DNA from: Candidatus Cloacimonadales bacterium
GTDB lineage: Bacteria; Cloacimonadota; Cloacimonadia; Cloacimonadales; JAIOQZ01
NCBI GenBank assembly: GCA_963662655.2
Contig: CAXXTU010000002.1
Coordinates: forward strand, 2,304,034 to 2,368,033
Direction of reading: 5' to 3'
Length of the DNA stretch: 64,000 nt
The number at the start of each line of letters is the position of its first letter. The first letter of the stretch is position 1. The translations under genes and the position numbers were made by a program. The notes below the pieces were generated by a model that did no database searches, was not told the origin of the DNA, and saw only the letters and a program-made list of their open reading frames with translations. Below, in pieces: positions 3,130 through 47,898 of the stretch.

Positions 3130-3143
3130 GAAGTTTTTGTGGT

Positions 3144-6556: not shown

Positions 6557-6558
6557 AA

Positions 6559-8231: not shown

Positions 8232-8520
8232 GTTTATTTTGTTATGCATTATTGACTTATTCTTTACCGTTTCCTGCAATCAAGCTAGAGCTTAGTTATG
8301 CATAAAGCAAACGAAGTGCCGAAAGCCCTGAAATAAAATCTGGAGAATCAAATTGGATTTTGTGGCTGAAACTTCAGGTTTCATTGGCCATTTTACGATG
8401 TCGAGAAACACTGAAATCCCAATAAATGCTATGCCATTTTTGCACTTTCCGTAAAGCACTTCCATCAACCGCATAAATATTGGATAACGACATGAGCGAA
8501 ATTGAGTAAAATTAAACTTC

Positions 8521-8549
8521 TTGACATAACAAATCTTTGCGTTCTTAAT
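8521..8549 (+). promoter_or_regulatory. Putative sigma70-like promoter (TTGACA-N17-CTTAAT) for the 8577 gene
   Basis: TTGACA at 8521-8526 and an A/T-rich hexamer 17 nt downstream. The GGAGG SD and ATG follow at 8577. Confidence 0.35.
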
Positions 8550-8576
8550 TCGATTATCAAAATCCCAGGAGGACGT

Positions 8577-11500
8577 ATGAAACGCACCATGCTTTTCTCA
8601 CTGCTCATTGGAATCTTATTCCCATGTCTTGCCTTTGCTTCCGGCAGTTCGCAGCAACCCGATGAAATCATGGACATCAACGATCGTTTCCGCAATGTAC
8701 CAGCTGTTTCTTCAGCCACTGATCCAATGCCGATGCTCTACTATGCATCCTTTGGCGTAGCCGGAATTGACGAATGCGATATGGAAGAACCCCCATACGC
8801 AGTTACCGCCTCGATTATCAGGTTCAAGATTGAACACTCCGATATGGGTATGCGCCTTTTAGACGAGCAGACTCTTTACATGGATGGAAACTTCGTCGCT
8901 GCAAACGACAAAATTGATTATCTCAATTGTTACAATCAAGCCGACCTTGCTGGTATTCAAAACGACTTTACTACACATGCACGCGTCCGTTATGAAAGTG
9001 GCACAGGATTCATGGCAAGTCCTGTATATTGTGGTAACTTCATCCTGGTTCTGAATAAAAGTGGTCTCTTGATGGCAATTGATTCTGACTTCACGGGAGG
9101 TATAAACAATTACACAGAAGATGTCGTAATCAACAGTATCGACCTCAGGGCGATAGAGAGAGAAGAAATCAGCTTTATGTCACATGCTCTCGAGTATGGA
9201 TCAACCCCTGTGGTTATTGGAAACTATATCTATGTCGCCGGTTTGCAATCGATATTCAAGATTCAGATATCGAATTTCCAGGTCGTTAATTTCCACAACT
9301 TTAACGAACTGGCAAGTGCAAGCCTTGAGGGCATCAGAACCTTTTTCACACCATTGGTCTGGGATTTAAACAGCAATAATGATATTTATCTAACAATATC
9401 GACATCCAGATTCCCGTCACTAATGCCTCCATCGAATATTGTGTATGTGCTGGATCAGAATCTCGAAATCGTGTACACAGAAAACGGCTCAGGTTTAGTT
9501 AATGGAAGCAATCCAACTGTAGATTATAGTGGTTACATATATTATCCTGCAACAACTTTTCTAAGATCATCTCGAGAAACCAGGTCAGTACTTTCGGATT
9601 TCGACTATGGGTTTATTAATACTCCACAGGGAATTCAGAACTTTCAAGGTTCGATTCTTTCCGATTTCTCAGGTAACCTGATTTATAGTGCAAGTACATT
9701 CGATGGGTCTCAATACAGTCTAAGCACCTATTCTATATCAAGAGATTATAACTACTTAAACTCTAACAATGACCCAATTTTCGAGACTGAAGTCGCCGAA
9801 CTTGTGTTTGATCACTTCTTGAACACAGAGCCGTATTTAAACAATCATGGCTTTATCTGTGAAGATATTGATCATGACAGATCCTTGACGGTGTCCATTA
9901 GCTCACACCTTGGTAACGGAGTAGGCTGGCCTCCAGTTGAAGAAATCCCTTTTTGGTATAACGTTTACGATCACGAGACAAGCGATATTACTTTGGGATT
10001 TGTCGTATGTGAATATCAGACCTCCACCCATTCAAGTGGTTCTGAAATTATAAATGACACTGCGACCTATGGTGGCCTTGCACCATACAAGACCAACGAA
10101 TATTATGTTAATGCCACTTTCGGCACTGAAACTGGTGGACTAATGGCTTGGCCACATTATATGGATGTATCTCAGTACGGCCTTTCTTACTCCACGAAAC
10201 TTGAAATAACCCAGCCCGTCATTTCAAACACCAGCCACAGCAAATTTCAGCGGGATGTGACCAATAACTGCTCCTACACCTGGGCAGACAACTTCAAAGT
10301 TGCGATTGGCTTTATACCGCAGGACACTCAGATAGAGAAGGTTTTTGCCAACGGATATGCCAGAAATGCCACGCTTGATCCCGAGACAAATCTTCTTACA
10401 GCAACATTCGAGAAACTTCTCGCTCATCCCAATTACACTGTCGGATTCCGCTACACCGACAATAATGGCACACATTCAGCCTCTATTGGACATATTAATG
10501 TTCCGGAGATGCAACCGCTTGTCCTCAGCTTTGTACAGGACCTTGTTGTTGATGATGGCGATGTAGTCAACATCGATGAAAACAATTTGTGTTTCAACTC
10601 CATTACGATCAATTCAGGTGGAATTCTGAATATCAACGGCAGTGGCATATATTCCGAAACGATCAATATCAATAATGGGGCCGTATTGAATATCAATTCC
10701 GGGGCAAGTATTTCATCCTATGAGTGTTATTGCAAAAACGAACAAAACAACACCAATCCATCCGAGATCAATCTTGTATCAAATGGAAGGCTCATCACGA
10801 CCTGGCTGTTGCTTGATGAATGGGATGATGTTTATACTCAAATAGAAGGCAGCAATCAGAACAACGTAATCGTTTCAGATCTTTATTTGGGAATTGGAAG
10901 TGTGATGGAAATCCTCGAATCAACTGGATCTGGCACAACGAACGCAACTGTTACCATATCGAGAGCAGTAGGCGATCATATCAGAGGGACTATTCTCACG
11001 TCTGCGGTTTTGACAATAACCAATCGACTCGACATAGCATATCCCATAAGCATCTCTGTTCTCAATAATGGAAAACTGGTAGCATCTTCAACCTCCACTC
11101 ATTCTGGAGCAACAGCTGATATCAACATGTTTGGATCAGATAGTCCATTGGTTATTGCGGATGGAGGTGAGCTTGATCTACAGAACAAGGGACAACTTCT
11201 AATGGATGGTTCAACAGGATATGATCCCATTCTGGATATTTCTGGTACTCTGAGACTTAATAACTCGAGCGAGTTGCTATGCAGAGATGGGCAGATAATT
11301 CTTGAAGATGATACGTCCGTTTTCCTCTCAGGAAGATCATTGATCGAAGTGACAGATAATGGCGAATTGGATATCTACGACGATGTCACCATCACGGGCC
11401 ATACACCGATTGACTTTGCGAATCATCTGCCTGGCGACAGAATCGTTATCAAGAATGGCGGAGCTTTGGGAGTCGATCCAAGCAATCCCTCAGGTTTCTG

Positions 11501-13304
11501 TCACAACTTGACCGTACAGAGCGATACGTCTGAGCGTTGGGAAGGTATCGAGTTTCACGCACCCGAATACCAAGAACAAGATTACCTGTATTTTGAAAAT
11601 GCGAACATCTCCAGAGTACGTACCTTGAATATCAGTGAACGCGGCGAATCGGAAGTATACGTTAAATTCCTGAACTCTCAATTCGAAGATTGCGAGTACG
11701 GATTGAAGCTAACAAGGCTTACTTCTGTTATTCTCGATAATACGAGCTTCTCGGAATGTGAAACCGGGATTTTTTGCTATGCAGTAACGGATGTATCTCT
11801 TCTTAGCACAGACCCATCGGCCGACAAGGCAGTCTTCTCTAAGAATGAGTACGGGCTTATCATTCTAAGTGCAGATGAGGATGATCCCGAAACAATCTAT
11901 GACTACACCTTCGCCGATAACAGTGAAATTGGTTTATGGATTGAGGATAGTCGTTTCAACATAGGTGGAACATTCACACAACCAGACATCTACACTGAGA
12001 TCGGAGCTTGCTCATTTACTTCAAACGGAACAGCGTTGAATGCGTCTTTGGGTAGTGCCGATGAATCCGTTATTACCCACAGTAGTTTTACGGATAACAA
12101 CGATGATGCCTTGTTCATAGCCGAAATGAATTTACGTATCAACCAGAATACCATCAGCGATAATGGAAGGCAGGGAATCTGGGGATATCGCGGTGGCTTC
12201 GCCGATGTAAGAGCAAATACTGTCTCAAACAACGGCGGTACAGAAATCCTTGGTAGCGGATCGGTTTTCATCAACATGCGACAAACAGAACATGAAGATC
12301 GAAACATTGTTACCGATACGGGATTCGATCCGATCATAATACCGTCGATCCCTGATTTCTGGGATCCCGATGAAATGGATGTATATGTTATCGCTCGCAG
12401 CGACTTGGGAAGAGAGGTGGACGTAACGGGAAATGAATTCACCCCTCATCCATCGATCCACCCCGAGCGATATTATCCCTCCGTAAGAGATTTCATCTTC
12501 GATGGTCGGGCTTTCAGCGCTCAAGAACTTTTTGACGCTGGACTCGCCGCTTATGGCTATAGCGTCTACACGACAGCCAAAAACAACTTCACAAACCTTG
12601 TAACGTCATATCCCGAATCAAACGAAGCGGTGGCGTCTCTGATCTATTTCCTCTACATCGCATCGAAGACAGACAAGGATTATAAAGCAATGCGCCAGGA
12701 ACTGAACGCTCTGGTTTCCAAGGATTATCCTGATCTATACAAGGAAAAGGAGAGAGTCGTTACGGAATCCTTTATGTATGAGAAGAATTACATCGAAGCA
12801 ATCGCAAGGCTGGAAGAGGTTATAATAGAGCCAGATACGAGAATCGACAGTGTTATGGCTTTGGCCGATCAGGGTTACTGCTACGTGCAGCTCGCTGAAT
12901 CCGGCACAAGGGCATTACCCAATAAATGCACGGTGAAGACGAAAACAATCGAGGAATATCTCGAATATATGAAATCCCTTCGTATGTTCCTGAACGGCGA
13001 CGCGGAGTCCTCACAGGCGCCTGCATACGTGTTTGCACTTGACGCGAACTATCCCAACCCCTTCAATCCTACCACGACGATCTCGTATTCGATCCCGAAG
13101 GACGACAAAGTCGTCTTGAAGGTGTACAATATCAAAGGACAGCTCGTAAAGACGCTGGTCAACGATCACCTCGAAGCTGGAAAGCACAAAGTCGTCTGGA
13201 ATGGCGACAATCAGATCGGCAAGAACGCATCGTCAGGCATCTATCTGTACCGTCTCGAGTCCGGTGGGAAGTCGAAAGCGCAGAAAATGCTTTTACTCAA
13301 ATAA
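8577..13304 (+). CDS. Giant secreted protein with parallel beta-helix (PbH1-like) repeats and a T9SS/FlgD-Ig-like C-terminal sorting domain
   Basis: The track ORF starts at a TTG (8502). The likely start is the ATG at 8577 after GGAGG, giving the signal peptide MKRTMLFSLLIGILFPCLAFASG. The C-terminus is NYPNPFNPTTTISYSIP...VLKVYNIKGQLVKTL...SGIYLYRLESGGKSKAQKMLLLK. Confidence 0.85.
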   Translation: MKRTMLFSLLIGILFPCLAFASGSSQQPDEIMDINDRFRNVPAVSSATDPMPMLYYASFGVAGIDECDMEEPPYAVTASIIRFKIEHSDMGMRLLDEQTLYMDGNFVAANDKIDYLNCYNQADLAGIQNDFTTHARVRYESGTGFMASPVYCGNFILVLNKSGLLMAIDSDFTGGINNYTEDVVINSIDLRAIEREEISFMSHALEYGSTPVVIGNYIYVAGLQSIFKIQISNFQVVNFHNFNELASASLEGIRTFFTPLVWDLNSNNDIYLTISTSRFPSLMPPSNIVYVLDQNLEIVYTENGSGLVNGSNPTVDYSGYIYYPATTFLRSSRETRSVLSDFDYGFINTPQGIQNFQGSILSDFSGNLIYSASTFDGSQYSLSTYSISRDYNYLNSNNDPIFETEVAELVFDHFLNTEPYLNNHGFICEDIDHDRSLTVSISSHLGNGVGWPPVEEIPFWYNVYDHETSDITLGFVVCEYQTSTHSSGSEIINDTATYGGLAPYKTNEYYVNATFGTETGGLMAWPHYMDVSQYGLSYSTKLEITQPVISNTSHSKFQRDVTNNCSYTWADNFKVAIGFIPQDTQIEKVFANGYARNATLDPETNLLTATFEKLLAHPNYTVGFRYTDNNGTHSASIGHINVPEMQPLVLSFVQDLVVDDGDVVNIDENNLCFNSITINSGGILNINGSGIYSETININNGAVLNINSGASISSYECYCKNEQNNTNPSEINLVSNGRLITTWLLLDEWDDVYTQIEGSNQNNVIVSDLYLGIGSVMEILESTGSGTTNATVTISRAVGDHIRGTILTSAVLTITNRLDIAYPISISVLNNGKLVASSTSTHSGATADINMFGSDSPLVIADGGELDLQNKGQLLMDGSTGYDPILDISGTLRLNNSSELLCRDGQIILEDDTSVFLSGRSLIEVTDNGELDIYDDVTITGHTPIDFANHLPGDRIVIKNGGALGVDPSNPSGFCHNLTVQSDTSERWEGIEFHAPEYQEQDYLYFENANISRVRTLNISERGESEVYVKFLNSQFEDCEYGLKLTRLTSVILDNTSFSECETGIFCYAVTDVSLLSTDPSADKAVFSKNEYGLIILSADEDDPETIYDYTFADNSEIGLWIEDSRFNIGGTFTQPDIYTEIGACSFTSNGTALNASLGSADESVITHSSFTDNNDDALFIAEMNLRINQNTISDNGRQGIWGYRGGFADVRANTVSNNGGTEILGSGSVFINMRQTEHEDRNIVTDTGFDPIIIPSIPDFWDPDEMDVYVIARSDLGREVDVTGNEFTPHPSIHPERYYPSVRDFIFDGRAFSAQELFDAGLAAYGYSVYTTAKNNFTNLVTSYPESNEAVASLIYFLYIASKTDKDYKAMRQELNALVSKDYPDLYKEKERVVTESFMYEKNYIEAIARLEEVIIEPDTRIDSVMALADQGYCYVQLAESGTRALPNKCTVKTKTIEEYLEYMKSLRMFLNGDAESSQAPAYVFALDANYPNPFNPTTTISYSIPKDDKVVLKVYNIKGQLVKTLVNDHLEAGKHKVVWNGDNQIGKNASSGIYLYRLESGGKSKAQKMLLLK

Positions 13305-13615: not shown

Positions 13616-14559
13616 CGGTTCACCCCCACATGCGTGGGGAATACTATCCACTGGCTGGAAACCGGAGACGGAAACCCGGTTCACCCCCACATGCGTGGGG
13701 AATACTACGATGGAACGAACCGCGAGCAATTCGAGAACGGTTCACCCCCACATGCGTGGGGAATACACGATTGAACATATCCTCAGAAAAAAACACGCCG
13801 GTTCACCCCCACATGCGTGGGGAATACGGATTGGGCGACCCGCGCAACCTGCCGCATTTCGGTTCACCCCCACATGCGTGGGGAATACGACATGGTCAAC
13901 GCTGATCCTGCGAATACGTTCGGTTCACCCCCACATGCGTGGGGAATACTCATCGAATGGCTTTTGGGTTGTTTCGCTTGTCGGTTCACCCCCACATGCG
14001 TGGGGAATACGGTTACTGGAAGCAGACCGTCACCGATTGCCTCGGTTCACCCCCACATGCGTGGGGAATACGACTCCGCGTAGGTTTGTATAACGTAGGT
14101 CGACGGTTCACCCCCACATGCGTGGGGAATACATCCAACTTTTCACCCGCTTCAGGCGCGAAAACGGTTCACCCCCACATGCGTGGGGAATACTGATTTG
14201 AGAAATCGTAGAAATAGCGGGATCCCGGTTCACCCCCACATGCGTGGGGAATACACAATCGTACCATTCAGGTACCCAAGCTTGTCCGGTTCACCCCCAC
14301 ATGCGTGGGGAATACTTGACAACACCACGGTAATCGAAACGTACGGTCGGTTCACCCCCACATGCGTGGGGAATACTAAAAGTCGTCTGCCCTGCGTCTG
14401 TCGAAGCGCGGTTCACCCCCACATGCGTGGGGAATACTAGAAGTTTTGCACGTAACAGAACGCATCGACCGGTTCACCCCCACATGCGTGGGGAATACGT
14501 CAGTGCGAGCGCGAACGATCCTCAGCAGGTCGGTTCACCCCCACATGCGTGGGGAATAC
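13616..14559 (-). CRISPR. Type I-E CRISPR array: 16 identical 29-nt repeats, 15 unique 32-nt spacers, exact 61-nt period
   Basis: The plus-strand repeat is CGGTTCACCCCCACATGCGTGGGGAATAC at 13616, 13677, ... 14531. Its reverse complement, GTATTCCCCACGCATGTGGGGGTGAACCG, matches the sense orientation of the E. coli I-E repeat (GAGTTCCCCGCGCCAGCGGGGATAAACCG). The array is therefore read on the same strand as the cas genes. Confidence 0.97.
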
Positions 14560-14566
14560 TCTTGAT

Positions 14567-14842
14567 TTAATCGGGCTTCGAGGGCCTCGTCAGTAGCTTA
14601 AGTCCTTCCCAGTCTGTGACGATTCTGCTGTTGGCTCCCCAGAAGTCAACACAAAAACCCTGTTCGTTGTTGGTCGACCACAGCATCATGCAAGCGCCGC
14701 CTTTGGAGTCGGCGCAAACCTTCTTCCAGAGGCGATCGCGCACCATCGCGGATACGTTGCCGACGAACACGCCTGCCTTCACTTCGAGCAGCCAGCGCGT
14801 CAGCTCACCCCTGAGCGAGACCGGAACCTTTTCGAGAATCAT
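14567..14842 (-). CDS. cas2: Cas2 (type I-E)
   Basis: MILEKVPVSLRGELTRWLLEVKAGVFVGNVSAMVRDRLW parallels E. coli Cas2 ([30 protein letters not shown]). The track start at 14920 lies inside cas1. The ATG at 14842 or the GTG at 14851 is more plausible. Confidence 0.9.
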   Translation of the reverse strand: MILEKVPVSLRGELTRWLLEVKAGVFVGNVSAMVRDRLWKKVCADSKGGACMMLWSTNNEQGFCVDFWGANSRIVTDWEGLKLLTRPSKPD

Positions 14843-14847
14843 GACGT

Positions 14848-15801
14848 TCACTCTTCCTCCTTGTCTCCACCTTCTCCATAGGAAACGCCGCCGGCGCATT
14901 CGCCGGTCACGGGGTCCCACAAACCACCCGGCTTCGCGGGATCGGCATCGAAGTCGTCCTCGGCATCCTCGGGCGGTTTAGCCCCTAAGATGTCGTGGAT
15001 ATCCTTCACGATCCGCTTGAGCAGCCCCTGTTGATGGAACATGTCTCTACAGCGGATACGCACCTCGCGGCTGAGGTTTCTATCCACCTCCGCGACGGTC
15101 TGGAAGGCGACCGGGATCGTCAGTTCCGTCTTGTAGAGGTCCGCGACATCATAGACGAACGAGAGCTGCTTGCCGGTATGCACGAACCCGATTGCTGGGG
15201 AATATCCCGCCGCCACGATCGCCGCATGGGATATTCCGTAGAGGCATGAATTCGCCACCGACAACGCCTTGTTGATCGGATCGGCGTTCTTCCAGTCGCG
15301 CCGGTCATAGTTCCGACCCTTCCACGGGACGCCGGTATCGCGCGAGGCACGGAAGTAAGCGTCACGAACTCGAACGCCTTCCATGCCCCTGATTTGCTCC
15401 AGTGTCAGCGACGGATCAGGCTTCTCCGGGAAGCGGAATTCGTACATCCTGCGCACGATGTAGAGGCGGGACTTCTCGTTCGCCCAGAGCTTCACCTGCC
15501 TGAGAAGATGAGAAGCCTTCCGGGTCGCGCCGCTGCCCGATGCGTAGAACCTTACGCCCTGTTCGCCGCTCCAGACGACCAGGCAACCGCAATCTGCGAG
15601 CGTCGTGATCGCCGCGTGCGTAATGCTCGTGCCCGGTCCGAGCAACAATACGGAGAGATTGTCGCAGGGAATCGGGGTCAACCCGCGAAGATCGTGGACG
15701 GCGATTGCCTTGTCTTCCCGATCGATGATTCCGTGCTCGATGTAGAGCCAGCTCCACTTGTCACGGACCTTGGGGACTTGGTGATAATCCTTTGTCAGCA
15801 T
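14848..15801 (-). CDS. cas1: Cas1 (type I-E integrase)
   Basis: Collinear similarity to E. coli Cas1, e.g. LLGPGTSITHAAI, VVWSGEQGVRFYASG, AGYSPAIGFVHTGKQLSFVYDVADLYK. SD AGGAGG upstream. Confidence 0.95.
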   Translation of the reverse strand: MLTKDYHQVPKVRDKWSWLYIEHGIIDREDKAIAVHDLRGLTPIPCDNLSVLLLGPGTSITHAAITTLADCGCLVVWSGEQGVRFYASGSGATRKASHLLRQVKLWANEKSRLYIVRRMYEFRFPEKPDPSLTLEQIRGMEGVRVRDAYFRASRDTGVPWKGRNYDRRDWKNADPINKALSVANSCLYGISHAAIVAAGYSPAIGFVHTGKQLSFVYDVADLYKTELTIPVAFQTVAEVDRNLSREVRIRCRDMFHQQGLLKRIVKDIHDILGAKPPEDAEDDFDADPAKPGGLWDPVTGECAGGVSYGEGGDKEEE

Positions 15802-15811
15802 GGATCACCTC

Positions 15812-16588
15812 CTACCTCCTGACAACCGACAACAGCCCGAACCCGAAAGATTTTGCGGACCCGATCCCGTTGCGGATGGTTTCCATGAATTGTTCCGGAT
15901 CGGTCACTTCGAGGATGCCTTCCATCAGCGCTGCGTTGAAGGTAAGACGTTTCTTGTCGAGGTTCCAGCTACCGCTCCTGGTTGAAAAGCCGTCCGGCTT
16001 GTAACCGACGACCCGGAAGAGGCGTACAAGATCGAATTTCTCGATAACGAACCCACCATTGCCGGAACGTCTGCCGAGCCAGTCTTTATACTCGTCGTGG
16101 AGCCGCACAGCGCGTTCATCCTCGGTCTCGTCAATCGGCCCGGCGAGGGACACGATCGAAACCCGTTTGCCGATCGTCCTTTTGCGCCCCTGCCTGTCGT
16201 ATTTCTCTGTATGCTCGCGAGCGAAGTCACCCGTCGATATTTTCTTCGTGGGGTTCGCCAGCAGCCGGTAGCGCAGGATATCTCCTTCATGGAAGACAGG
16301 ATCGTAGGGCTTGTATGCCGGCAGAGACGCGAGGAAATCGGGCGCGTTGTAGAAGGCTTCTTGCCAGTTCGGTTCTGCCTCCGATTGCACCAGGATCATC
16401 GCGCGTGAGCCGTCTGAGCTGATGTTGTTGTCGATGCGGAAGAGGAACATGGCTTTTTGATCATCCTTCTTACCGAACGCCATCGAAAGTCGCTGGTGGA
16501 CGTGGTAGATGTTGTTGAGCCACATCCTTCCCGGGCGCGGTCGATCGGGATTACCGCCCGTGTCGATCAGTAGTTGGGACAGGTACAT
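15812..16588 (-). CDS. cas6e: Cas6e (CasE/Cse3 crRNA endoribonuclease)
   Basis: The N-terminus MYLSQLLID...YHVHQRLSMAF and the C-terminus GIGSAKSFGFGLLSV parallel E. coli CasE (MYLSKVII...YQLHQGLWHLF ... GIGPAKSMGCGLLSL). Confidence 0.9.
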   Translation of the reverse strand: MYLSQLLIDTGGNPDRPRPGRMWLNNIYHVHQRLSMAFGKKDDQKAMFLFRIDNNISSDGSRAMILVQSEAEPNWQEAFYNAPDFLASLPAYKPYDPVFHEGDILRYRLLANPTKKISTGDFAREHTEKYDRQGRKRTIGKRVSIVSLAGPIDETEDERAVRLHDEYKDWLGRRSGNGGFVIEKFDLVRLFRVVGYKPDGFSTRSGSWNLDKKRLTFNAALMEGILEVTDPEQFMETIRNGIGSAKSFGFGLLSVVRR

Positions 16589-17699
16589 CGTCGCCCTCCT
16601 TTTCTTCGAATCTGCGTTTACGGGTCTTCTTGCTGCGGAATTTCACGATCTCGGCGCGCTTTTCGCGGATACGTTCGCGCCACGCCGGGTCTTCGGGATC
16701 GATGCGGTCGATGCCCATGTTGGCGCCGTACTCGAGCATGGTGATGGCGTCGTGGCAAAGTCGGCACAGCGATTTCAGATCATCGAGCGATTCGTTGCCA
16801 CCCGCGCGCCGATAGGTGATGTGCTGCACGGTCGAAGAAGGTGAACCGCAGAAGGTGCAGCGTCCGTCGTCATGCGCCAGTCGCTTCGCACGTTTCTTGC
16901 GGAACTCGGTGTTCTGATAGTCGGCGTGGATGCGTTGTGTAGAATAAGCACCCTCCACGCCCAGTATCACATTACTGCGCTTCACATCGCCGTTTTTACC
17001 GACCGTTAACGATGATCGAATGGCGAAACGCGGTCTGTGGGACGGCGGATCGAAGGTGAAGGGGACATCGTACCAGACTTCGGCTTCTTCGGGGGCTTCG
17101 GGCTGGTTTTCGGTTGGACGCCAGTCGAGGAGAACCGTGACTTCGCAAGGTAGATGCTTATCATTGTCTTCGTGTCTTTGCGGCCAGGGAATCGATGCGA
17201 GGGCTTCTTCGAGCGAAGCGAATGTACCAGCGCGGTGTTCGTTAACCGGACGTGACATGGGGCAGTTCTTCCGGCCGAGGAAGAGCGCCCAGACGGGATT
17301 TTCGAGCGCGGATGACAAGGTCGCGATCAGATCTTCGTCACCCCGGAGCGCTACCAGGAAGCTCGCGTCGCAGAGGTATTCCCTGCGGGTGAGCATGGGG
17401 CCGTTTTTCTCTTTGCCTTCTGCCGTCGCCATCTTCATACCGGCGCCCACGGTATGCCAGTCCCACCAGCGGATGCCCGGGCGATCGATGCGCACGCCCA
17501 TTTCGAGGTTCGAGAGCTTTTCGAGCCAGCCGTCTTGCGCTTCCAGGCGGGATAGCCCCATCGCGGCGCAGAGCATGCCGATCACGCCGGACTTGGTAGG
17601 CGCTTCCTTCGTGCGCCGGATCACGAACTTCGATTCATGGCTTCCCCACGCCTGCATCGGTCCTTCCAGACGCAGGAACAGGGTGTTGTCACGCATCAT
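16551..17699 (-). CDS. cas5: Cas5e fused to a C-terminal HNH endonuclease domain (Cas5-HNH), followed by a basic tail
   Basis: The N-terminus LFLRLEGPMQAWGSHE...PTKSGVIGMLCAAMG parallels E. coli CasD (LILRLAGPMQAWGQP...PTRSGLLGLLGACLG). Residues 261-320 form the HNH core: GRCTFCGSPSSTVQHITYRRAGGNESLDDLKSLCRLCHDAI (C281xxC284, H293, N302, C312xxCH316). At 382 aa it is ~150 aa longer than canonical Cas5e. Its 3' end overlaps cas6e by 38 nt. Confidence 0.9.
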   Translation of the reverse strand: MMRDNTLFLRLEGPMQAWGSHESKFVIRRTKEAPTKSGVIGMLCAAMGLSRLEAQDGWLEKLSNLEMGVRIDRPGIRWWDWHTVGAGMKMATAEGKEKNGPMLTRREYLCDASFLVALRGDEDLIATLSSALENPVWALFLGRKNCPMSRPVNEHRAGTFASLEEALASIPWPQRHEDNDKHLPCEVTVLLDWRPTENQPEAPEEAEVWYDVPFTFDPPSHRPRFAIRSSLTVGKNGDVKRSNVILGVEGAYSTQRIHADYQNTEFRKKRAKRLAHDDGRCTFCGSPSSTVQHITYRRAGGNESLDDLKSLCRLCHDAITMLEYGANMGIDRIDPEDPAWRERIREKRAEIVKFRSKKTRKRRFEEKEGDDVPVPTTDRHGR

Positions 17700-18828
17700 G
17701 CTTCTCCACGATCGCTTTTTGCACCGCCTCCCAGTCGAAACCCATCTCTTTCACGATTGCCGTGACAAACTGGTCGAAATTGCTCAGGCTTTCTTTCGCA
17801 AGACCATGGAAATCATACCGTCCGCCCGGTGAGAACCAGTATCGCTCGCCCTGCGCGCTGAAGCCCTCGTCGAGCTCGGAGACGTACTGCGCCAGTTGTG
17901 CGACGCTTTCTTCCACCAGGTCGCGCTGTCCGGGCCTGACCGGCTTCACGAAGGCGTTGGCGTAGCTGATCGGCGTCTTGTTATCCTTCTTGATCTCGAC
18001 AAGGATTCCGTCCGGCGGGTTGTGCGCGGCGTAGCTGTTCTGTTTGCCACTCGGCGTGGTCAGCGCCATGGCACGGATGAACGCGCCGACGGTGTGCGCC
18101 GCCAGATCGACCTGTCCGCCAAGGTTAGCAACGAGCTGCTCCCAATCGATGGAGAAGTATTTATAGAAGCAGGAGGAGGAATAGAGCGCTTCATCGACAT
18201 GAGCTGCTCCGGATTTTGCCACAGATGCATCATCCACTGCGGTGAAGTAGTCGATTTCAGGGTGTGCGACGTGAGTTGATATCGCGTGTGCGGCTTGCAG
18301 GGCTGCTTCGATTCCAGTATTCGTTGCTCTCAGCATACTTTGCTTCTTTGCTTCAAGCATTCTGCCATGTAATGCAATATCTGGCTCCTCTGCTATAGTG
18401 ATGATAGTTGCAATTTTGTTAGCTTTCTCATCATCAGGTATCTTAGAAGTCACCACATCAACTAGCTTCGGAATAGCTTTTTTGGAGACAAACACAAGTA
18501 CTTTGGTGTGTTCTTTACCGGTTTCCTTGTCTTTCTCCATGTCCAAACCAGTCATCTTTAGAAGAGCCTTAGCTTTTTTCAGGACTTCTTCTTGCATCTT
18601 GTGATCTTTAGTAGTAGCTTCCGCGATCCTGTCTGCAAGCCACCTTGTTCTTTCCCCACCCATAAGCTTCTCAAACTGTTTACTCATCCTGATACTTCTC
18701 TTCAGGCACTGGCTTGAGATACGACTTCTGAGGTAGCCGCCGAACATGGTGGTCTTGGGTGCGCCGAGGTCGTCGCGGTTGAGGTTACTGGGCGCGTGAT
18801 TCTGGATGGCATGAATCTCGATTAACAT
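17689..18828 (-). CDS. cas7: Cas7 (CasC/Cse4 Cascade backbone)
   Basis: IEIHAIQNHAPSNLNRDDLGAPKTTMFGGYLRSRISSQCLKRSIR parallels E. coli CasC ([45 protein letters not shown]). SD AGGAGG upstream. Confidence 0.95.
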   Translation of the reverse strand: MLIEIHAIQNHAPSNLNRDDLGAPKTTMFGGYLRSRISSQCLKRSIRMSKQFEKLMGGERTRWLADRIAEATTKDHKMQEEVLKKAKALLKMTGLDMEKDKETGKEHTKVLVFVSKKAIPKLVDVVTSKIPDDEKANKIATIITIAEEPDIALHGRMLEAKKQSMLRATNTGIEAALQAAHAISTHVAHPEIDYFTAVDDASVAKSGAAHVDEALYSSSCFYKYFSIDWEQLVANLGGQVDLAAHTVGAFIRAMALTTPSGKQNSYAAHNPPDGILVEIKKDNKTPISYANAFVKPVRPGQRDLVEESVAQLAQYVSELDEGFSAQGERYWFSPGGRYDFHGLAKESLSNFDQFVTAIVKEMGFDWEAVQKAIVEKHDA

Positions 18829-18840
18829 GGGTTCCTCCTG

Positions 18841-19329
18841 TTATTGCTGATTGATGTATTGTTCGATCCATTTTTGTCGGGTAGTCTGTCTCTCCCAGAT
18901 GGAGAGGTCGTCGGTGACTTGTGCCCAGTTGAGGGACATCCCGAGCTTCGCGACCTCTCGCAAAGCCCATCTGAGGTGCGGCTCGATGGTGTCGAGCGAT
19001 TGGATGAGCATTTCATCGACTCGTTTATCGAAGCGGACTCCTTTGTCGGGATCACTCGGTCGTCGTTTGCTCAGTAGTATCATAAGGGGCTTTCCCTTCT
19101 CATGAGACAATGGTGCGACGGCATAGAGCTTGCAGATAAGCCATGCAACACTACGACGTGGTGCGGATTGGTTTTTCTGCCGTAATGGCCACCAGATGCC
19201 GGTAAAGATGTCGAATCCTTGCAGGCTTTCGTCGAGTCCTTGATCGGCATGGGTGCGCAAGAGGCTGAGCTCGCCCGATTTCAGCTTCGAAAGGCCGATA
19301 ATGAATCGATAGGTGCTGATACTTGCCAT
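18841..19329 (-). CDS. cas11: Cas11 (Cse2/CasB small subunit)
   Basis: Position between cas8e and cas7, and 162 aa when started from the ATG at 19329 (MASISTYRFI...). The cas8e stop (19331-19333) ends 1 nt upstream of this ATG. The track start at 19392 lies inside cas8e. Confidence 0.75.
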   Translation of the reverse strand: MASISTYRFIIGLSKLKSGELSLLRTHADQGLDESLQGFDIFTGIWWPLRQKNQSAPRRSVAWLICKLYAVAPLSHEKGKPLMILLSKRRPSDPDKGVRFDKRVDEMLIQSLDTIEPHLRWALREVAKLGMSLNWAQVTDDLSIWERQTTRQKWIEQYINQQ

Positions 19330-19330
19330 C

Positions 19331-20815
19331 TTACTTGTCCTCCTTCGGGAGCCTGGGACGTAGCCGCTTGATCTCCCTGCGCTTCTTGGCATCCCTGATT
19401 GTCACATCCGGAGCGAGCGATTCCGCTGCTGCTTTCATGAACGGTGCATATTCGTTTGCAGCATCATCCCATGTGTAATCGCCATTGCCCGAAAGCAAAT
19501 CGGTCATGTGATTCGCGACCTGTTCCTCGACGTGAGGACGGGATAGCCGGGAGATGAAGGCGGTACGGGTGGGGGCTTTCTTCTTAGCATTCTTTTGCTC
19601 TTCTTTATCCTTGCGTTTTTTCTCGTAGTCTTTATCATTGTATTTCCAAAGGACATCATGAATTCTTTCCGATAGATATGTTATCGCATTTCCCCATAAA
19701 TCACGACGAGCTTCATCTAATGACATTGCTGGGATTGTTACCATTTGTTCCCATGTATCAACCCCCTTGCTATTCTGGCTATCGATAGAAAAGACAACAA
19801 AATGTATCTTATTTCCCCTTGAAAAAGGTATCCAATCACGGTGTTTCAAAATAGTGAGGAGGGTTTTGTCGATCGATATTTTCGGAGTTTTTATTGGGTC
19901 ACTTACACGAAGGATTTTCGTTTCGTATTTGGTTTCCTTCTTTTTCGGTATCACTTTCGTCGCCCATAATACATGAGGATCCTGCCATTCCAACCCCTTT
20001 GACCATCCCGCTTCTTGCATGTATATCGTCCTGATGAATAGAAAGTGATTTTCCCCGCAAACCGAACATGGTTCTCCTCCGCTTTCCGTCTCGTTAAGAA
20101 AGACTTGCACAGGAATGGAGGTTAATCCCTGTAATAAGGACACTGGGTTAGACGGTTGCAAAAAAGGCTGTTCAGTTGTCCATGAGGGCAATCCAGGATT
20201 ATCCCCGGGATTCCAATTCAACCGGATCGTATGAAGAAGCGTTCCTGAATCAAAGAACCAGTAAACTGGAGGAACACCGTTGATACCGTGACTCAGTTTC
20301 GTGAAACCACTCATCGAGAATACGGGGGGTCTCAACAACGCCATTGCAGCGCACGAGGGACAGACTCCGTTTTCACTGTCTATAACATGACGGAAATGCC
20401 AGGAGTTATGTCCGCTTGGCAACTCATGAAACAGATTCGTGACAGGTTTCTTTTTCTGTGGTTTTATTTTTTGCAGGTTTGGAGCCAATTCTATATCCTG
20501 ATAAAACCTCTTCCCGTCTCCCAGCAAGTTGAAGCAATCATGTTGCCCTCTAAGGAAGGTGATCCACTCCATCGGTATCCCATTACCGTTTGCAGGAAAT
20601 GGCTTCCCTGTCCGGTCCGCGCACCAGTAGCACACAGCCAGCAGAAAGCGGAAGACTGCGAACCGGTCCATGGGGTTGCTGGGGGCGATCTGTCGTATCG
20701 CTGCTGCCTTATCGAGCGTTTCGATGATGCCAAGTCTTTCATTGTCTCCGTGAAGCGTCAGGACAGGCAACCATTTCTCATCGAGAAGATTGTAGCGTTG
20801 ATCGTTTGCGCACAT
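19331..20815 (-). CDS. cas8e: Cas8e (Cse1/CasA large subunit)
   Basis: The N-terminus YNLLDEKWLPV parallels E. coli CasA (MNLLIDNWIPV). 494 aa, first gene of the operon, SD AAGGAG upstream. Confidence 0.85.
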   Translation of the reverse strand: MCANDQRYNLLDEKWLPVLTLHGDNERLGIIETLDKAAAIRQIAPSNPMDRFAVFRFLLAVCYWCADRTGKPFPANGNGIPMEWITFLRGQHDCFNLLGDGKRFYQDIELAPNLQKIKPQKKKPVTNLFHELPSGHNSWHFRHVIDSENGVCPSCAAMALLRPPVFSMSGFTKLSHGINGVPPVYWFFDSGTLLHTIRLNWNPGDNPGLPSWTTEQPFLQPSNPVSLLQGLTSIPVQVFLNETESGGEPCSVCGENHFLFIRTIYMQEAGWSKGLEWQDPHVLWATKVIPKKKETKYETKILRVSDPIKTPKISIDKTLLTILKHRDWIPFSRGNKIHFVVFSIDSQNSKGVDTWEQMVTIPAMSLDEARRDLWGNAITYLSERIHDVLWKYNDKDYEKKRKDKEEQKNAKKKAPTRTAFISRLSRPHVEEQVANHMTDLLSGNGDYTWDDAANEYAPFMKAAAESLAPDVTIRDAKKRREIKRLRPRLPKEDK

Positions 20816-20946: not shown

Positions 20947-21144
20947 TCAATAAACTATATCGCTTAATGTCAAACGATTTGTGCCTATAGCTAAAAGCGG
21001 CAGAGGATTCTCCTGCCTTGAAACTTGCTCAATCCTCATATGAATCACCTCCCCAAACGGCGGTATGAAACGCTCTTGTTCCGTGACGCCCCACAGTGTC
21101 GGATATTCGCAGGATTCGGGCATTGAGATGGCGGGATGGTTCAT
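20947..21144 (-). CDS. Small hypothetical ORF (65 aa) upstream of cas8e, on the same strand
   Basis: Strong SD (TTAGGAGGAACCC-ATG). No recognisable domain. It sits where cas3 is found in canonical I-E loci. Confidence 0.3.
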   Translation of the reverse strand: MNHPAISMPESCEYPTLWGVTEQERFIPPFGEVIHMRIEQVSRQENPLPLLAIGTNRLTLSDIVY

Positions 21145-21382: not shown

Positions 21383-24300
21383 ATGAAACTTTTTTTACTT
21401 ACGACACTTTTCGTTTTCACTCTCAGTTTTATTTTTGCCGATGGCGTACAGCCGTCGGGGGCAGGTACAGAGTCAAGTCCATATCAAATCGCGAGTCTCG
21501 ATAACCTGTTGTGGCTCAGCACGAATTCATCGTATTGGGGCGATTACTTTATGCAGACGGCAGACATCGATGCATCCGACACACAGAACTGGAATTCAGG
21601 CGCGGGATTTTCGCCGGTCGGTACTGAAGGCGATCCATTCTCAGGTGATTTCAACGGCCAGGGTAATGTGATTTCCAATTTGACGATTAATCGACCTTCT
21701 TTGGGAGGATGTGGATTATTTGGCTATACCGATGGAGCATAACTTCACGATATTCATTTGGAGAATGTACAGATTTCGAGTGAATCTAATGCGGGTACTA
21801 TTGCTGGATTCAATCTAAACACAAGTCTCTATCGATGTTCTGCAACCGGAACATTGACAGTCGATCATCAGTCTGTAAATTCCAATAGCTACGCAGGTGG
21901 TCTGATAGGCAGACATACAAGCTTCGATGGAGTGACCGCGAATATCATTGAATGCTACACTGATGTCGAAATAACAGCGAATGGCGACCGCGTTGGAGGT
22001 ATCACGGGGCTTGTTCTTTCAGGTTATCAGAGTACAGTCGGTGGAGATATTTTAATCTCCAACTGCTACAGTCAAGGAAGCATTTCTGCGAACAACCATG
22101 TTGCAGGATTGGTGGGCAGAATCCCAGACTGGGCTACCACGCCTGGTACGGTTGAAATCGTCAATTGCTACAGCACAACTTCAGTAACGGGAAACAATAC
22201 ACTTGGCGGATTGATTGCCGAACGTGGAATCGGAACTGTGACCACGTCTTTCTGGGATACCGAAACATCGGGTCAATCCTCCAGCGCTGGCGGTACAGGA
22301 CTTTCCACAGCAGAAATGAAGGACTTCTTCACCTACTACGATGCCGAATGGGACTTCATGAATGAATCACCGAACGGTACGAACGATCGATGGGGAATGA
22401 ACAGCGCTGATAATGGCGGTTACCCCTTCCTCTCTATCCAGGGTTACGAGAACGACTGGCCCAAACTGCCCGACGGTAACGGAAGTGAAGCGAACCCCTG
22501 GGAGATATCGACAATCCAGCACCTGTTGTGGTTGTCCATGCATGATGATGCCTGGGGAGGCAGCGATTACATCATCCAGACGGCAGATATAGACGCATCA
22601 GACACCCAGAACTGGTTCGATGGCGCGGGATTCTTGCCTGTCGGAAACGCTGACCAGAAGTTCATGGGTGAATACGATGGAGCAGGTTATTCAATATCAA
22701 ACCTTTACATCAATCGTCCCGCAACGGACAATGTAGCGTTGTTCGGCTTTACCGACCAAGCCAATCTATCCGACGTTCACCTGGTCAATGCAAATATCGT
22801 GGGGCAGGCTAAGGTGGGAGCCCTTGTTGGTCATGCTCACACCACGAATGTCCATAGCTGCTCGGCTACGGGCAATGTTACAGCCAATCACCAGACGGTA
22901 AACAACAATAGCTATGCAGGTGGATTAATCGGATCGTATGTATCGAATGAGAGTTCTTCCGCCAGCATTACATCCTCATATACAGACGTTAATGTAGATG
23001 TTATGGGAGATGTCGCAGGCGGTCTGATTGGGCTGATCTCGTCTGGATTTCAGGCAACACCCGGGGGTGACGTTCTCATCTCCAATTGCTACACGCGTGG
23101 CTCCGTAATCGGGCAAGCCAGGATTGGCGGGATGATCGGTAGAATCCCCGACTGGGCATACGTGCCCGGTACGGTTGAAATCGTCAATTGTTACAGCTCG
23201 ACGATCGTGTCGGGAAATTCTTTAGTTGGCGGTTTGATTGGCGATCGTGGAACCGGAACCTTAACCTCGTCTTTCTGGGATACGGACGTCTCAGGACAAT
23301 CCTCCAGCGCTGGCGGCACGGGGATGATAACAGCCGACATGAAGCACGCGCAATACTTCTACGAAGCAGGCTGGGATTTCGCCGGTGAAACGCAAAACGG
23401 TTCGGATGATATCTGGGGTCTCAATAACAATAAAAACAACGGCTATCCCTTCCTGATGTGGCAGGGATTTGCAAATACCGATTACTGCGTATTTGCCGGT
23501 TCCGGTACCGAGGCCGATCCCTATCAGGTATCGAGTCTCAACCACCTGAGAGAATTGAGTAGTCTTGCGTCGATATGGGATGATCACTTCATTCAGACCG
23601 CTGATATCGACGCGACCGGTACACAAAGTGATCCTTTTGTCCCAATTGGGAACGGTACGAATAAATTCGAAGGATCATACGATGGCAACGGCTTCCAGAT
23701 CACGAATCTGAATATTGATCGAAATGCTGATTATAATGGACTCTTCGGATACGCGTTGAACTCGACTATCACAAACATACATCTGGTTGATGTCGAGATA
23801 GATGGAAACAATTACACGGGTACACTAATTGGATATGGCAATAACGTTCATGTGACGAAATGCTCCGCAACAGGCAATCTTCATGGTGATAATTATGTTG
23901 GTGGTTTGATAGGATTTACCAGATACACTGGCAGCAATGGATCGTATGTAAGTGAATGCTGGACCAATGTTAGAGTTTTCTCATACACTCAATATGCTGG
24001 AGGACTCATTGGTTTCATAGTGAATGGCGATTCCCAGGTATCAACCACGTTTACGATCGAAAACTGTTATGCTCGCGGATGGGTACAATCAACGAATTAT
24101 ACCGGTGGACTCATCGGATATATATTGGTTGAATCATATCAAACCGCATCAGTAAAGAATTGCTTCAGCGCTGGACGTGTAGTGTGCTCGTTTAGTAACT
24201 ATGGAGGTTTGATAGGTTATAAAACACCCACCTGTGATGTTTTAAACTGTTTCTGGGATATGACGAATTCATACACGAATTCAAGTAATGGCGGAACGGG

Positions 24301-26200
24301 TAAGACAGCATCTGAGATGTTTGATCTCGCTACCTATACCGACCTGTCAACCGATGGATTGACCACTGCCTGGGACTTCGTTTGCAACCCCAATGACGAT
24401 ACCGGAAACGATGATATATGGGTGATGAATCCCCCCATCTATCCGGTGTTTAGCTGGCAGGAGGTGCCACCCGTGGTGGCAACGATCGAAGCGACCAATA
24501 TCACGACCAACAGCGCCGAAGCAGGCGGTATGGTCGGGTATGCCCGGGTCGATGCACCGGTCGCACGGACGGCGAGTGCGAGCAAAGAAGTGCCCCAAAC
24601 GCGGAACCAGCAGAAATCGTTCAAACAGGTTACCACCAAGGATCGCGCCGACGTAACGGCAAGAGGCGTGTGCTGGAGTACCTCGGCCAATCCCACGCTG
24701 GAAGACTTCTACACCGTCGATGGAAGCGGACTGGGGTCATTCACCTCGACGCTGACCGGATTGAGTGAGGGTACGATATACTACTATCGGGCCTATGCAA
24801 CCAGCGTCAACGGCACCGGTTACGGAGAAGAATACAGCTTCGTCACCCTCTTCTCACCCGCCGACAACGAATTTCCCGCCAACGGCGCGACAGGCTTACC
24901 GCGACAGGTAACCGTCAGCTGGCGTTTCAGTGGAAGCGCCGAGCTAACAGGATTCAAGGTGTACAAAGGTGAGACACAGGTTGGCGACCCCGTTCCCGTG
25001 TGGAATTTTGGAGAGAATACTCAGTACAACATGGCGATGCCGCTTGCCGATTGGGGCGAAACGGTCACCTGGAAGATCGTGCCTTACAACGATAACGGCG
25101 ACTGCACGGCTCCGGTTGTTTGGAGCTACACGACGATGGACGAACCGGCGGAACCGGATCAGGTTCCCACCGAAATCGTCTATGCCAGTTTAGAGGGTGT
25201 GTCCGTTACCAATCCCTCTCCTATCTTTTTCCCGTCGATTATCCTGGAGGAATTTGGTTTCCAGCCGACGTTGACCTATGGCTTCGGAACCGCGCCTTCC
25301 AATGCGACGATCGGTGGCATCGTCCGTGATTTACCGACTCATCTGCTCCCGCACAGCGAGTTCTGCACGGTGGCTTTCACCGCCGATATCCCTTCCGGCA
25401 TCCAGACGCTGATCGAGCTGTTCTACAGCTACACCTTGCATTCCAACGAGCTTGCCTGGTGGAATGGCTCGAGCTGGCAGGATATCACGATCTCCAGCGG
25501 AGCTGATTTCTCAACCCCTGGAACCGTGGTCTTCACATGGACATCGACCGGACGCGGTACCGACGAATTTGTGGTCAACAATGGCGATGGAACGACCCTG
25601 CCGGTCGAGATGTCTTCGTTCACCGCTACCGTTACCTCGCAGAATTATTCGAAGATCAACTGGACGACCCAATCCGAGAGCGATATGGCAGGGTACAATC
25701 TCTATCGCACGGATGAAAATAGCCTCGAAGATGCTCTGAAGATCAATCTGGATATTATCCCTGCCGCAAATGCAACCGAAGCGACCAGCTACGAGTTTCT
25801 CGACCAGGATGTTACGAAGGATGCGCAGTACTTCTACTGGCTTGAGAGCGTGGAACTTGGCGGAGGTTCATCCATGCATGGTCCGGTCACGGTGACAATC
25901 ACCGAGGATGGCGGTTCCGGCGATACGCCCGAAATTACGTTTTCAACCAAGTTTACCGGTACGTACCCGAATCCGTTCAACCCGGTGACGACGATCAGCT
26001 ATACGCTGGAAGCGAATCGCACCGTCCGGTTTTCCATGTTCGATCTGAAGGGCAGGAAAGTTGGTTCGTTATCGCAGCATGGCGAAAAGGGTCGCAACAC
26101 CCTGACCTGGAACGCAAAGGACCTACCCAGCGGAATCTACTTCATCCGGATGAACGCCGGCGATGTCGAGCAAGTTCGCAAGGTCATGATTCTGAAATAG
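21383..26200 (+). pseudogene. GLUG-repeat giant surface protein with a T9SS C-terminal domain, interrupted by one in-frame TAA at 21740-21742
   Basis: ORFs 21335..21742 and 21758..26200 share one frame. The sequence reads ...LFGYTDGA*LHDIHLENVQI..., which aligns to the module consensus LFG[YF]T....[IL]..[IV]HL.N. Signal peptide MKLFLLTTLFVFTLSFIFA from the ATG at 21383. Repeated GGLIG (GLUG) motifs and SSAGGTG.[ST].EM...GWDF...GYPFL.WQG modules. Ends with the NPFNP sorting tail. Confidence 0.8.
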
Positions 26201-29716: not shown

Positions 29717-29780
29717 AAGTTTTTTACTTGACCTTTAGATGGACTTTTCGCGTATTTATGAAAAACTTCTGGAGCACAGT

Positions 29781-47867: not shown

Positions 47868-47898
47868 CGTAACCTCCAGTTTGTTCATTCATGTCAGT

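Follow-up and report, generated by a model that had tools for sequence, protein, structure and literature searches.

The reference for type I-E CRISPR-Cas systems that carry an HNH nuclease on Cas5 is the system of Candidatus Cloacimonetes ADurb.Bin088 (Altae-Tran 2023 Science; Zhang 2024 Mol Cell; Liu 2025 Nat Commun), whose Cas5-HNH Cascade is represented in the PDB by entries 8yb6, 8yha, 8zlu, 8zp7 and 9jxs. This system cleaves dsDNA precisely and in a PAM-dependent manner without Cas3, and the activity is lost on mutation of the HNH active site (PMC10910872, PMC11794572). It also edits human cells in which no Cas3 is present (PMC10910872). In the 2025 classification, the Cas5-HNH variant was given the name I-E2 (PMC12669027). 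A likewise Cas3-less type I system with a resident HNH domain and precise double-strand breaks is the I-F4 Cas8-HNH Cascade of Selenomonas sp. (Hirano et al. 2024), in which the domain is inserted in Cas8f on an I-F backbone and represents an independent acquisition.

The locus described here lies within a 64-kb stretch of DNA, referred to as the window, from a contig of about 3.7 Mb. It occupies positions 13616-20815 of the minus strand, on which all of its genes are encoded in the order cas8e-cas11-cas7-cas5::HNH-cas6e-cas1-cas2, followed by a CRISPR array. The ORFs and family matches reproduce the gene order of the original prediction at the same coordinates and on the same strand. All seven cas ORFs are intact, and the five effector genes, which stand in canonical I-E order, are matched by Pfam, NCBIfam and PADLOC I-E models; the I-E-specific models for Cas5e, Cas6e, Cas7e, Cas11, Cas1e and Cas2e pass their curated cutoffs. 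The locus is very probably a type I-E variant I-E2 (Cas5-HNH Cascade) CRISPR-Cas system of a Cloacimonadales-like bacterium. Such systems are of an already known kind, described in 2023, with solved structures and a place in the classification, and the window adds a further relative; the earlier statement that HNH Cascades had been reported around 2023-2024 from Cloacimonetes was correct (Altae-Tran 2023, ADurb.Bin088 system).

With canonical I-E systems (E. coli K-12; Thermobifida fusca Cascade) the locus shares the gene order through to the array, the matches to I-E family models, and a 29-nt repeat that ends in AACCG, forms a hairpin and is separated by 32-nt spacers. Unlike them, it has no cas3, carries an HNH domain on Cas5 and, by homology, is predicted to use one Cas11 rather than two. 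The distance from cas2 to the array is also shorter, 7 nt against 105 nt in E. coli K-12. With ADurb.Bin088 it has in common the order of the five effector genes, the HNH domain attached to the Cas5e C-terminus through a long linker, the H/D/H triad, the Cys4 zinc site, the linker-contacting residues of Cas11, 32-nt spacers, an I-E-like repeat and the lack of cas3. All five Cascade subunits find their best PDB match in the ADurb.Bin088 HNH Cascade by a wide margin, with canonical I-E proteins far lower.

The large subunit Cas8e (Cse1/CasA, 494 aa; 19331..20815), the predicted PAM reader, is recognized by Pfam PF09481 (6.2e-34) and PADLOC Cas8e (4e-37). Its score is under the NCBIfam cutoff (41 vs 70 bits) but well over that of Pfam (118 vs 24.7 bits), and among PDB entries it is closest to the Cas8 of the Cas5-HNH Cascade (8yb6_J, 1.2e-62), with canonical Cse1 at 3e-6. 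The small subunit Cas11 (Cse2/CasB) is encoded by a longest ORF of 183 aa (18841..19392) that matches Pfam PF09485 (7.7e-9) and TIGR02548 (30.6 bits, cutoff 28.5). Translation probably begins at M22 (19329), 1 nt past the cas8 stop, which would give 162 aa, because the PDB Cas11 chain aligns from its residue 5, which pairs with residue 27 of the ORF. This protein has a single PDB match, 8yb6_K (1.1e-28), and the alignment shows conservation of W68, R71 and Q75, the counterparts of W46, R49 and Q53, which are essential for function in the reference. The backbone subunit Cas7e (Cse4/CasC, 379 aa; 17689..18828) matches Pfam PF09344 (CT1975) at 5.8e-97 and TIGR01869 at 7e-82, over its cutoff; its best PDB match is 8yb6_D (3.7e-110), with the top canonical Cas7e at 5.6e-40. 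The pre-crRNA endoribonuclease Cas6e (Cse3/CasE, 258 aa; 15812..16588) matches Pfam PF08798 (2.1e-43) and TIGR01907 (2.4e-20) and aligns from its first residue with 8yb6_B (8.9e-59). Its H31 pairs in the alignment with H20, the catalytic histidine of E. coli CasE.

The defining gene of the locus encodes a Cas5e of 382 aa with a C-terminal HNH nuclease domain (16551..17699). Residues 6-219 match Pfam Cas5 (2.6e-41), and TIGR01868 is found at 1.3e-44. The HNH domain, which had been proposed from the sequence, is confirmed by a profile match to Pfam PF01844 over residues 281-319 (4.8e-6; 27.1 bits, cutoff 21.4) and by full-length alignment to 8yb6_A (1.7e-129, 56.5% identity, 359 aligned residues). 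The protein consists of a Cas5 body (about residues 1-235), a linker (about 236-262), the HNH domain (about 263-368) and a 14-aa tail, the last of which is encoded by a 38-nt overlap with cas6e (16551-16588) that had also been noted and is real. Foldseek searches with an AlphaFold model of modest quality (mean pLDDT 64) gave 8yha_A, 8zlu_B and 8yb6_A as top matches at E of about 1e-34. The match to the I-F HNH Cascade, where the nuclease sits on Cas8 and not on Cas5 as in the window, is structurally weak (8yh9_A, E 4.7e-3).

The active site can be read from the alignment to the reference. H293, D307 and H316 align to H310, D324 and H333, and C281, C284, C312 and C315 align to the zinc-finger cysteines C298, C301, C329 and C332; the DNA-contacting residues Y261 and Q292 are kept as well. 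Among 121 family members, the triad and Cys4 positions vary little or not at all (a single Ser at position 315), which indicates purifying selection on nuclease activity. The catalytic triad is predicted to be H293/D307/H316, with Asp where classic HNH domains have Asn. The original prediction had named H293 and N302 as catalytic residues: the first stands, and the second is rejected, since position 302 varies in the family whereas position 307 is exclusively Asp or Glu and D307 is the equivalent of the essential D324 of the reference. An N302A mutant would therefore probably be uninformative.

The Cas5-HNH protein of the window differs from that of ADurb.Bin088, to which it is about 56% identical, in lacking an insertion of about 12 residues at reference residues 104-116 and in extending 14 residues further at the C-terminus, where its gene overlaps cas6e. 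Several published contact residues between HNH and Cas6 are also substituted (E289 to K272, K302 to G285, H295 to D278, and Cas6 R33 to Q32, from ADurb.Bin088 to the window). Given this level of identity and these substitutions, the two systems could differ in PAM, cut positions and collateral activity; the activity, PAM and cut sites of the window's complex are predictions from the ADurb.Bin088 homologue.

By analogy with that homologue, Cas6e would process the array transcript to crRNAs of 61 nt, in which the 32-nt spacer is preceded by an 8-nt 5' handle and followed by a 3' hairpin. Each crRNA would be bound by six copies of Cas7 and single copies of Cas8e, Cas11, Cas5-HNH and Cas6e, with the HNH domain held in the belly of the complex at the canonical second-Cas11 site, clamped by Cas6e and Cas11. 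Cas8e would read the PAM, a full R-loop would form, and the outcome would be a defined double-strand break rather than the processive shredding typical of Cas3. Cas1e-Cas2e would insert new spacers into the array at the end nearest cas2.

The closest loci come from Ca. Cloacimonadales MAGs, with Cas5-HNH identities of 83-86% and an identical repeat; metagenomes contain hundreds of additional relatives. In Cas2, the window is 93-96% identical to three Cloacimonadales loci, L001, L002 and L006. These three share the repeat of the window and have entirely different spacers, which amounts to complete turnover among the four loci; L002 has lost cas1.

The signature gene of type I systems, cas3 (HD nuclease plus SF2 helicase), is absent from the window, as expected for I-E2. 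Pfam scans of its plausible ORFs with a length of 150 aa or more revealed no Cas3 with HD and helicase domains, and tblastn with E. coli Cas3 (E <= 0.01) gave no match in the 64 kb, although the same query found remnants in other loci. The absence of cas3 that had been predicted is thereby corroborated within the 64 kb. The sole HD protein of the window (4313-6556, 747 aa) was rejected as Cas3, as it resembles HD enzymes of the SAMHD1/dGTPase type and has no helicase domain. The 65-aa ORF upstream of cas8e (20947..21144, minus strand), which has no match in Pfam or NCBIfam, represents the leftover 3' end of a DUF2201/VWA-like gene: in tblastn searches it matches L002 as well as the C-terminus of the DUF2201 protein of L001 (56% identity, 45 aa, E 8e-14), where an intact 370-aa gene lies directly upstream of cas8. 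This ORF is outside the CRISPR-Cas system.

The part of the contig searched for cas3 is 64 kb of about 3.7 Mb, and it can be argued that Cascade depends on a Cas3 encoded elsewhere, with HNH in an accessory role such as extra nicking or primed adaptation. Cas3-like sequence does occur upstream of cas8 in a minority of I-E2 loci (L063, L064, L065, L032, L028 and L084), which Altae-Tran et al. likewise noted (PMC10910872). However, the tblastn matches in these other loci mostly cover part of Cas3 only, and the closest relative, L001, has no cas3 in its 10-kb flanks. The ADurb.Bin088 homologue, moreover, cuts dsDNA and edits human cells without Cas3 (PMC10910872), and in its structure HNH fills the position of the second Cas11. 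Dependence on a distant Cas3 is consequently very unlikely, and homology to the published I-E2 systems supports the earlier reading of a Cas3-less I-E system in which the HNH domain on Cas5 would cut the target.

The adaptation module is also complete, in agreement with the original prediction of intact cas1 and cas2. Cas1e (317 aa; 14848..15801; TIGR03638 6.3e-116), the integrase, is 45% identical to E. coli Cas1 and retains the catalytic residues E141, H208, D218 and D221 in the alignment. The longest ORF of cas2e has 117 aa (14567..14920) and matches Pfam PF09707 (1.7e-32) from residue 26 and TIGR01873 (3.2e-19); its start is probably M27 at 14842, giving 91 aa. The array (13616..14559, minus strand) contains, as had been counted before, 16 identical 29-nt repeats (GTATTCCCCACGCATGTGGGGGTGAACCG on the transcribed strand) and 15 unique 32-nt spacers, with a period of 61 nt and its leader-proximal end at 14559. 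The repeat RNA folds like those of type I-E systems, with a hairpin of 7 bp and then 7 unpaired nt at its 3' end.

Co-opted Cascades characteristically lack Cas3, and the locus could be a decaying or non-nucleolytic remnant that binds without cutting, as a repressor or a guide for a mobile element (compare I-F3, I-B CAST and type IV). No protospacers were found for those spacers searched, and the close relative L002 lacks cas1, which would fit such a fate. Against it stand the seven intact ORFs, the HNH catalytic and zinc residues conserved across 121 members, the absence of Tn7-like or transposase domains in Pfam scans of the window's larger ORFs, intact Cas1 and Cas2 with catalytic residues, perfect repeats, and spacer sets that are wholly different between close relatives. 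This explanation is therefore very improbable. Perfect repeats, the retained active-site residues of Cas1 and Cas6e, and the lack of shared spacers among four loci with the same repeat argue for ongoing adaptation.

The one unusual feature of the locus, and a minor one, is the short junction between cas2 and the array. A gap of 7 nt (14560..14566, minus strand), with the sequence ATCAAGA in the window, L001, L002 and L006 alike, separates the cas2 stop from the first repeat. This leaves no room for an intergenic leader, so that any leader would have to lie inside cas2. Of 54 I-E2 loci in which the gap was measurable, about 38 have one of at most 30 nt. In small and phylogenetically non-independent samples, synonymous-site identity in cas2 rises from the 5' to the 3' end in two groups, the Cloacimonadales (0.53 to 0.85) and one other (0.56 to 0.73); the gradient was not seen in a third group. 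It is conceivable, if somewhat doubtful, that the 3' half of cas2 serves both as coding sequence and as a regulatory element containing the spacer-integration signals, in this lineage as well as in the majority of I-E2 loci. The Cloacimonadales loci may also have a sigma-70-like promoter there, as a TTGACT-16-(C/T)AGAAT motif ending 62 nt ahead of the first repeat is present in 4/4 of them; it is absent outside this group. Transcription reading through from the cas operon would account for expression of the array without any special element.

The gain for basic understanding is small, as HNH Cascades have already been found, biochemically tested, solved by cryo-EM and classified. The practical value is modest: the locus provides a divergent orthologue (about 56% identity, with altered HNH-Cas6 contacts) that could be screened for differences in PAM, cut pattern or editing efficiency. 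A leader embedded in cas2 could be of some interest for research on spacer integration. One metagenome scan yielded 357 matching stretches, with relatives from at least eight named lineages, which indicates that I-E2 is common among environmental bacteria and not very rare.

The minus strand of the window carries an uninterrupted operon of cas genes with a CRISPR array after it, and Pfam, NCBIfam and PADLOC models identify each gene as the type I-E version. According to the ORF list and these models, the order is cas8e (19331-20815), cas11 (18841-19392), cas7e (17689-18828), cas5-HNH (16551-17699), cas6e (15812-16588), cas1e (14848-15801) and cas2e (14567-14920); the array, on the same strand, occupies 13616-14559, where a 29-nt repeat recurs 16 times unchanged around 15 distinct 32-nt spacers. 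The original prediction had described the I-E gene order, an HNH domain on Cas5, the lack of cas3 in the 64 kb and 16 perfect repeats with 15 unique spacers, and all of these features are present. Pfam profiles matched both domains that it had read in ORF 16551-17699: in the 382-aa Cas5-HNH protein, the Cas5 domain covers residues 6-219 and the HNH domain (PF01844) residues 281-319, the latter above the Pfam gathering threshold. The 38-nt overlap between cas5 and cas6e, also noted earlier, is real, because the alignment of Cas6e to its solved homologue begins at residue 1. Two starts in the ORF list are most likely placed too far upstream: that of Cas11 is probably M22 (19329), 1 nt past the cas8e stop, and that of Cas2 M27 (14842), just past the cas1 stop. 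The transcribed repeat, GTATTCCCCACGCATGTGGGGGTGAACCG, folds into a hairpin of 7 bp and leaves 7 nt unpaired at the 3' end, as does the repeat of E. coli type I-E. GC content is 58% over cas2, cas1, cas6e and cas5 (about 14000-18000) and 46-49% over cas8e and cas11; the flanking genes have 40-50%. This contrast is compatible with horizontal acquisition or a locus of mosaic origin, or with the two together.

The 2025 classification (PMC12669027) defines variant I-E2 by an I-E backbone, an HNH domain fused to Cas5 and a typical lack of Cas3, and the system described here has all of these traits at the sequence level. For every Cascade subunit, the best PDB match is a solved type I-E HNH Cascade, that of Candidatus Cloacimonetes bacterium ADurb.Bin088, hereafter the reference, with canonical I-E proteins far weaker: Cas5-HNH matches chain 8yb6_A (E 1.7e-129; 56.5% identity over 359 aligned residues), Cas7 8yb6_D (E 3.7e-110), Cas8 8yb6_J (E 1.2e-62), Cas6 8yb6_B (E 8.9e-59) and Cas11 8yb6_K (E 1.1e-28). 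An AlphaFold model of Cas5-HNH, built from a 16-sequence alignment and of modest quality (mean pLDDT 64), served solely as a check on which structures match best; Foldseek placed 8yha_A, 8zlu_B and 8yb6_A first (E about 1e-34), with canonical Cas5e lower. The earlier reading of a Cas3-less system with an HNH on Cas5 agrees, at the level of sequence, with the published ADurb.Bin088 system, and HNH-Cascade had indeed already been reported, as it stated (PMC10910872, PMC12669027). The locus is real, but already known: it is an I-E2 orthologue, neither a new kind of system nor a new variant.

In the reference Cas5-HNH, cleavage requires H310 and D324, the latter at the position where HNH nucleases classically have asparagine, and the D324N mutant too is impaired; the third residue of the motif is H333, and a zinc site formed by C298, C301, C329 and C332 is needed for DNA binding and cleavage (Liu et al., PMC11794572). 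In alignment, H310, D324 and H333 correspond to H293, D307 and H316 of the window protein, and the four cysteines to C281, C284, C312 and C315. Conservation was scored by aligning the window protein with 120 homologues, the reference standing outside that alignment: H293, H316, C281, C284 and C312 are invariant, C315 is cysteine in all but one sequence, and position 307 is only Asp or Glu. The HNH call itself, with H293, H316 and the cysteines, therefore stands. The proposed HNH asparagine, N302, does not: its position varies (N 44, D 41, G 14, E 10, H 3) and is Lys in the reference, and D307 is the equivalent of D324. Other functional residues are also kept in the family, namely Y261 and Q292, which contact DNA, and W137 and Y210, which stack on the crRNA, and in Cas11 the conserved W68, R71 and Q75 are the equivalents of the essential W46, R49 and Q53 of the reference. 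Some of the published HNH-Cas6 contacts differ between the two systems, with E289, H295 and K302 of the reference replaced by K272, D278 and G285, and Cas6 R33 by Q32.

Neither a Pfam scan of the window's plausible ORFs (150 aa or longer, over all 64 kb) nor a tblastn search of the window with E. coli K-12 Cas3 (nothing at E <= 0.01) revealed a Cas3 HD and helicase protein. The same tblastn query picked up cas3-like sequence in six other fetched I-E2 loci. Such sequence is kept upstream of cas8 in a minority of I-E2 loci, mostly as part of Cas3 only: as two overlapping pieces in L063, L064 and L065 (about 55-2940), which may reflect a frameshift, and as short parts in L032 (33-293), L028 (3406-4155) and L084 (2088-2297). 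These loci fit the remark of Altae-Tran et al. (PMC10910872) on cas3 remnants. The sole HD-domain protein found in the window, a 747-aa ORF at 4313-6556, was considered as a diverged or remnant Cas3. This was rejected, since it has no helicase domain and reaches only E 0.008 with the PADLOC Cas3 HD model; its HD domain resembles dNTP triphosphohydrolases (PDB 2o6i, 7e-8; TIGR01353 and PADLOC dGTPase models).

The slot upstream of cas8e does hold the 65-aa ORF described earlier (20947-21144, minus strand), which has a good ribosome-binding site. It is not a small Cas-associated or anti-CRISPR-like gene; it is what remains of the 3' end of a DUF2201/VWA-like metallopeptidase gene. In the related Cloacimonadales locus L001 that gene is complete (5739-6851) and stands immediately upstream of cas8, preceded there by AAA-ATPase and DUF3150 genes. 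A PHROG "HNH endonuclease" match to this ORF (E 5.6e-4, 29 residues) is weak and was treated as chance.

Beyond the array, a few kb away and with one surface-protein gene between, lies a low-GC (41-45%) cluster of four genes (1954-8160, minus strand). It encodes a 533-aa and a 390-aa protein, neither of which has a recognisable relative in family libraries or the PDB, the 747-aa protein, in which a SAMHD1/EF1143-like HD dNTPase domain is joined to an extension of roughly 400 aa, and a 391-aa M78/IrrE-like peptidase that weakly resembles the defence regulators CapP and RmrA. This cluster may be another defence module. The stretch 520-1038 is a tandem duplication of a 267-nt unit (1.9 copies, 91% identical), and the beginning of a 234-aa ORF without family matches overlaps it. 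The window otherwise encodes mostly large type-IX-secretion cargo proteins and housekeeping genes (LysRS, RelA/SpoT, decarboxylase). Very large surface proteins, up to 2159 aa, are unusually dense (8502-13304, 21758-26200, 26836-28428, 29739-36218, 45795-47888, 48004-51207 and 62128-63366), and the CRISPR locus sits between two of them; most carry type IX secretion C-terminal sorting domains, and GLUG, M26-N, FG-GAP and cleaved-adhesin domains occur among them. Two paralogous TPR-HisKA proteins are encoded at 43828-45381 and 55003-56553.

Several points suggest that the system is active. All ORFs of the operon are intact and the 16 repeats are perfect; aligned to E. coli Cas1, with which it shares 45% identity, Cas1 retains E141, H208, D218 and D221, and Cas6e keeps the histidine aligned with E. 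coli H20. The window and three Cloacimonadales loci have an identical repeat and Cas2 proteins that are 93-96% identical, yet share zero spacers, which points to continuing spacer turnover. Protospacers were found neither by blastn of the whole array against 50,697 phage records, nor in IMG/VR scanned with five patterns made from spacers, of which three had N at each sixth position, nor by matching the 15 spacers to the window with up to 8 mismatches, nor by comparing the 606 spacers of all the fetched loci with every locus; these searches yielded no PAM.

The array begins unusually close to cas2, with a gap of 7 nt in the window versus 105 nt in E. coli K-12. The first repeat likewise starts 7 nt past the cas2 stop in L001 (13091-13099), L002 (6527-6535) and L006, all related Cloacimonadales loci, and 6 nt past it in L004 (13303-13310). 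Among 54 measurable I-E2 loci, the gap is at most 30 nt in about 38 and 94-116 nt in 10. Since 7 nt is too short for an intergenic leader, any leader must sit inside cas2. From 5' to 3', synonymous third-position identity in cas2 rises by quarter through 0.53, 0.61, 0.77 and 0.85 in the Cloacimonadales group; it also rises in one other group (0.56, 0.55, 0.52 and 0.73), and a third group tested has no 3' rise. These values are suggestive, though weakly so, of a putative leader or regulatory segment embedded in cas2. A general sigma-70-like promoter inside cas2 of short-gap I-E2 loci is not supported: the motif TTGACT-16-(C/T)AGAAT (window 14649-14622) is conserved in no loci other than the four closely related Cloacimonadales ones, and promoter-like matches across the region occur at chance frequency.

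The closest Cas5-HNH proteins (83-86% identity) occur in Candidatus Cloacimonadales MAGs, including the 3.89-Mb chromosome OY771587.1. In the Cloacimonadales MAG locus L002, the cas6e stop is followed directly by an N-terminally truncated cas2 (about 6100-6530); cas1 is deleted, and the array and the conserved 3' end of cas2 remain. The Cas5-HNH family is large: clustered at about 60% identity, its proteins form more than 120 groups, from sources named Terriglobia, Chloroflexota, Myxococcales, Hydrogenedentes and Desulfobaccales, genome loci in Chthonomonas, Phycisphaeraceae and Planctomycetaceae, and matches in 357 stretches of a metagenome collection.

The probable mechanism is taken from published work on the homologue. 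Cas5-HNH Cascade was shown to bind crRNAs whose spacers are 32 nt long, to deplete plasmids carrying a PAM in E. coli, to cleave ssDNA collaterally and to make indels in human cells, which are lost with HNH catalytic mutations (Altae-Tran et al., PMC10910872). Cryo-EM studies (including PMC11794572) revealed one Cas11 and six Cas7 subunits in the reference complex. Its HNH domain sits where canonical Cascade has a second Cas11, clamped by Cas6 on one side and Cas11 on the other; the substrate channel opens when the R-loop forms, and cleavage of the target strand precedes that of the non-target strand. By analogy, the system of this Cloacimonadales bacterium would be expected to work like the reference Cas5-HNH Cascade.
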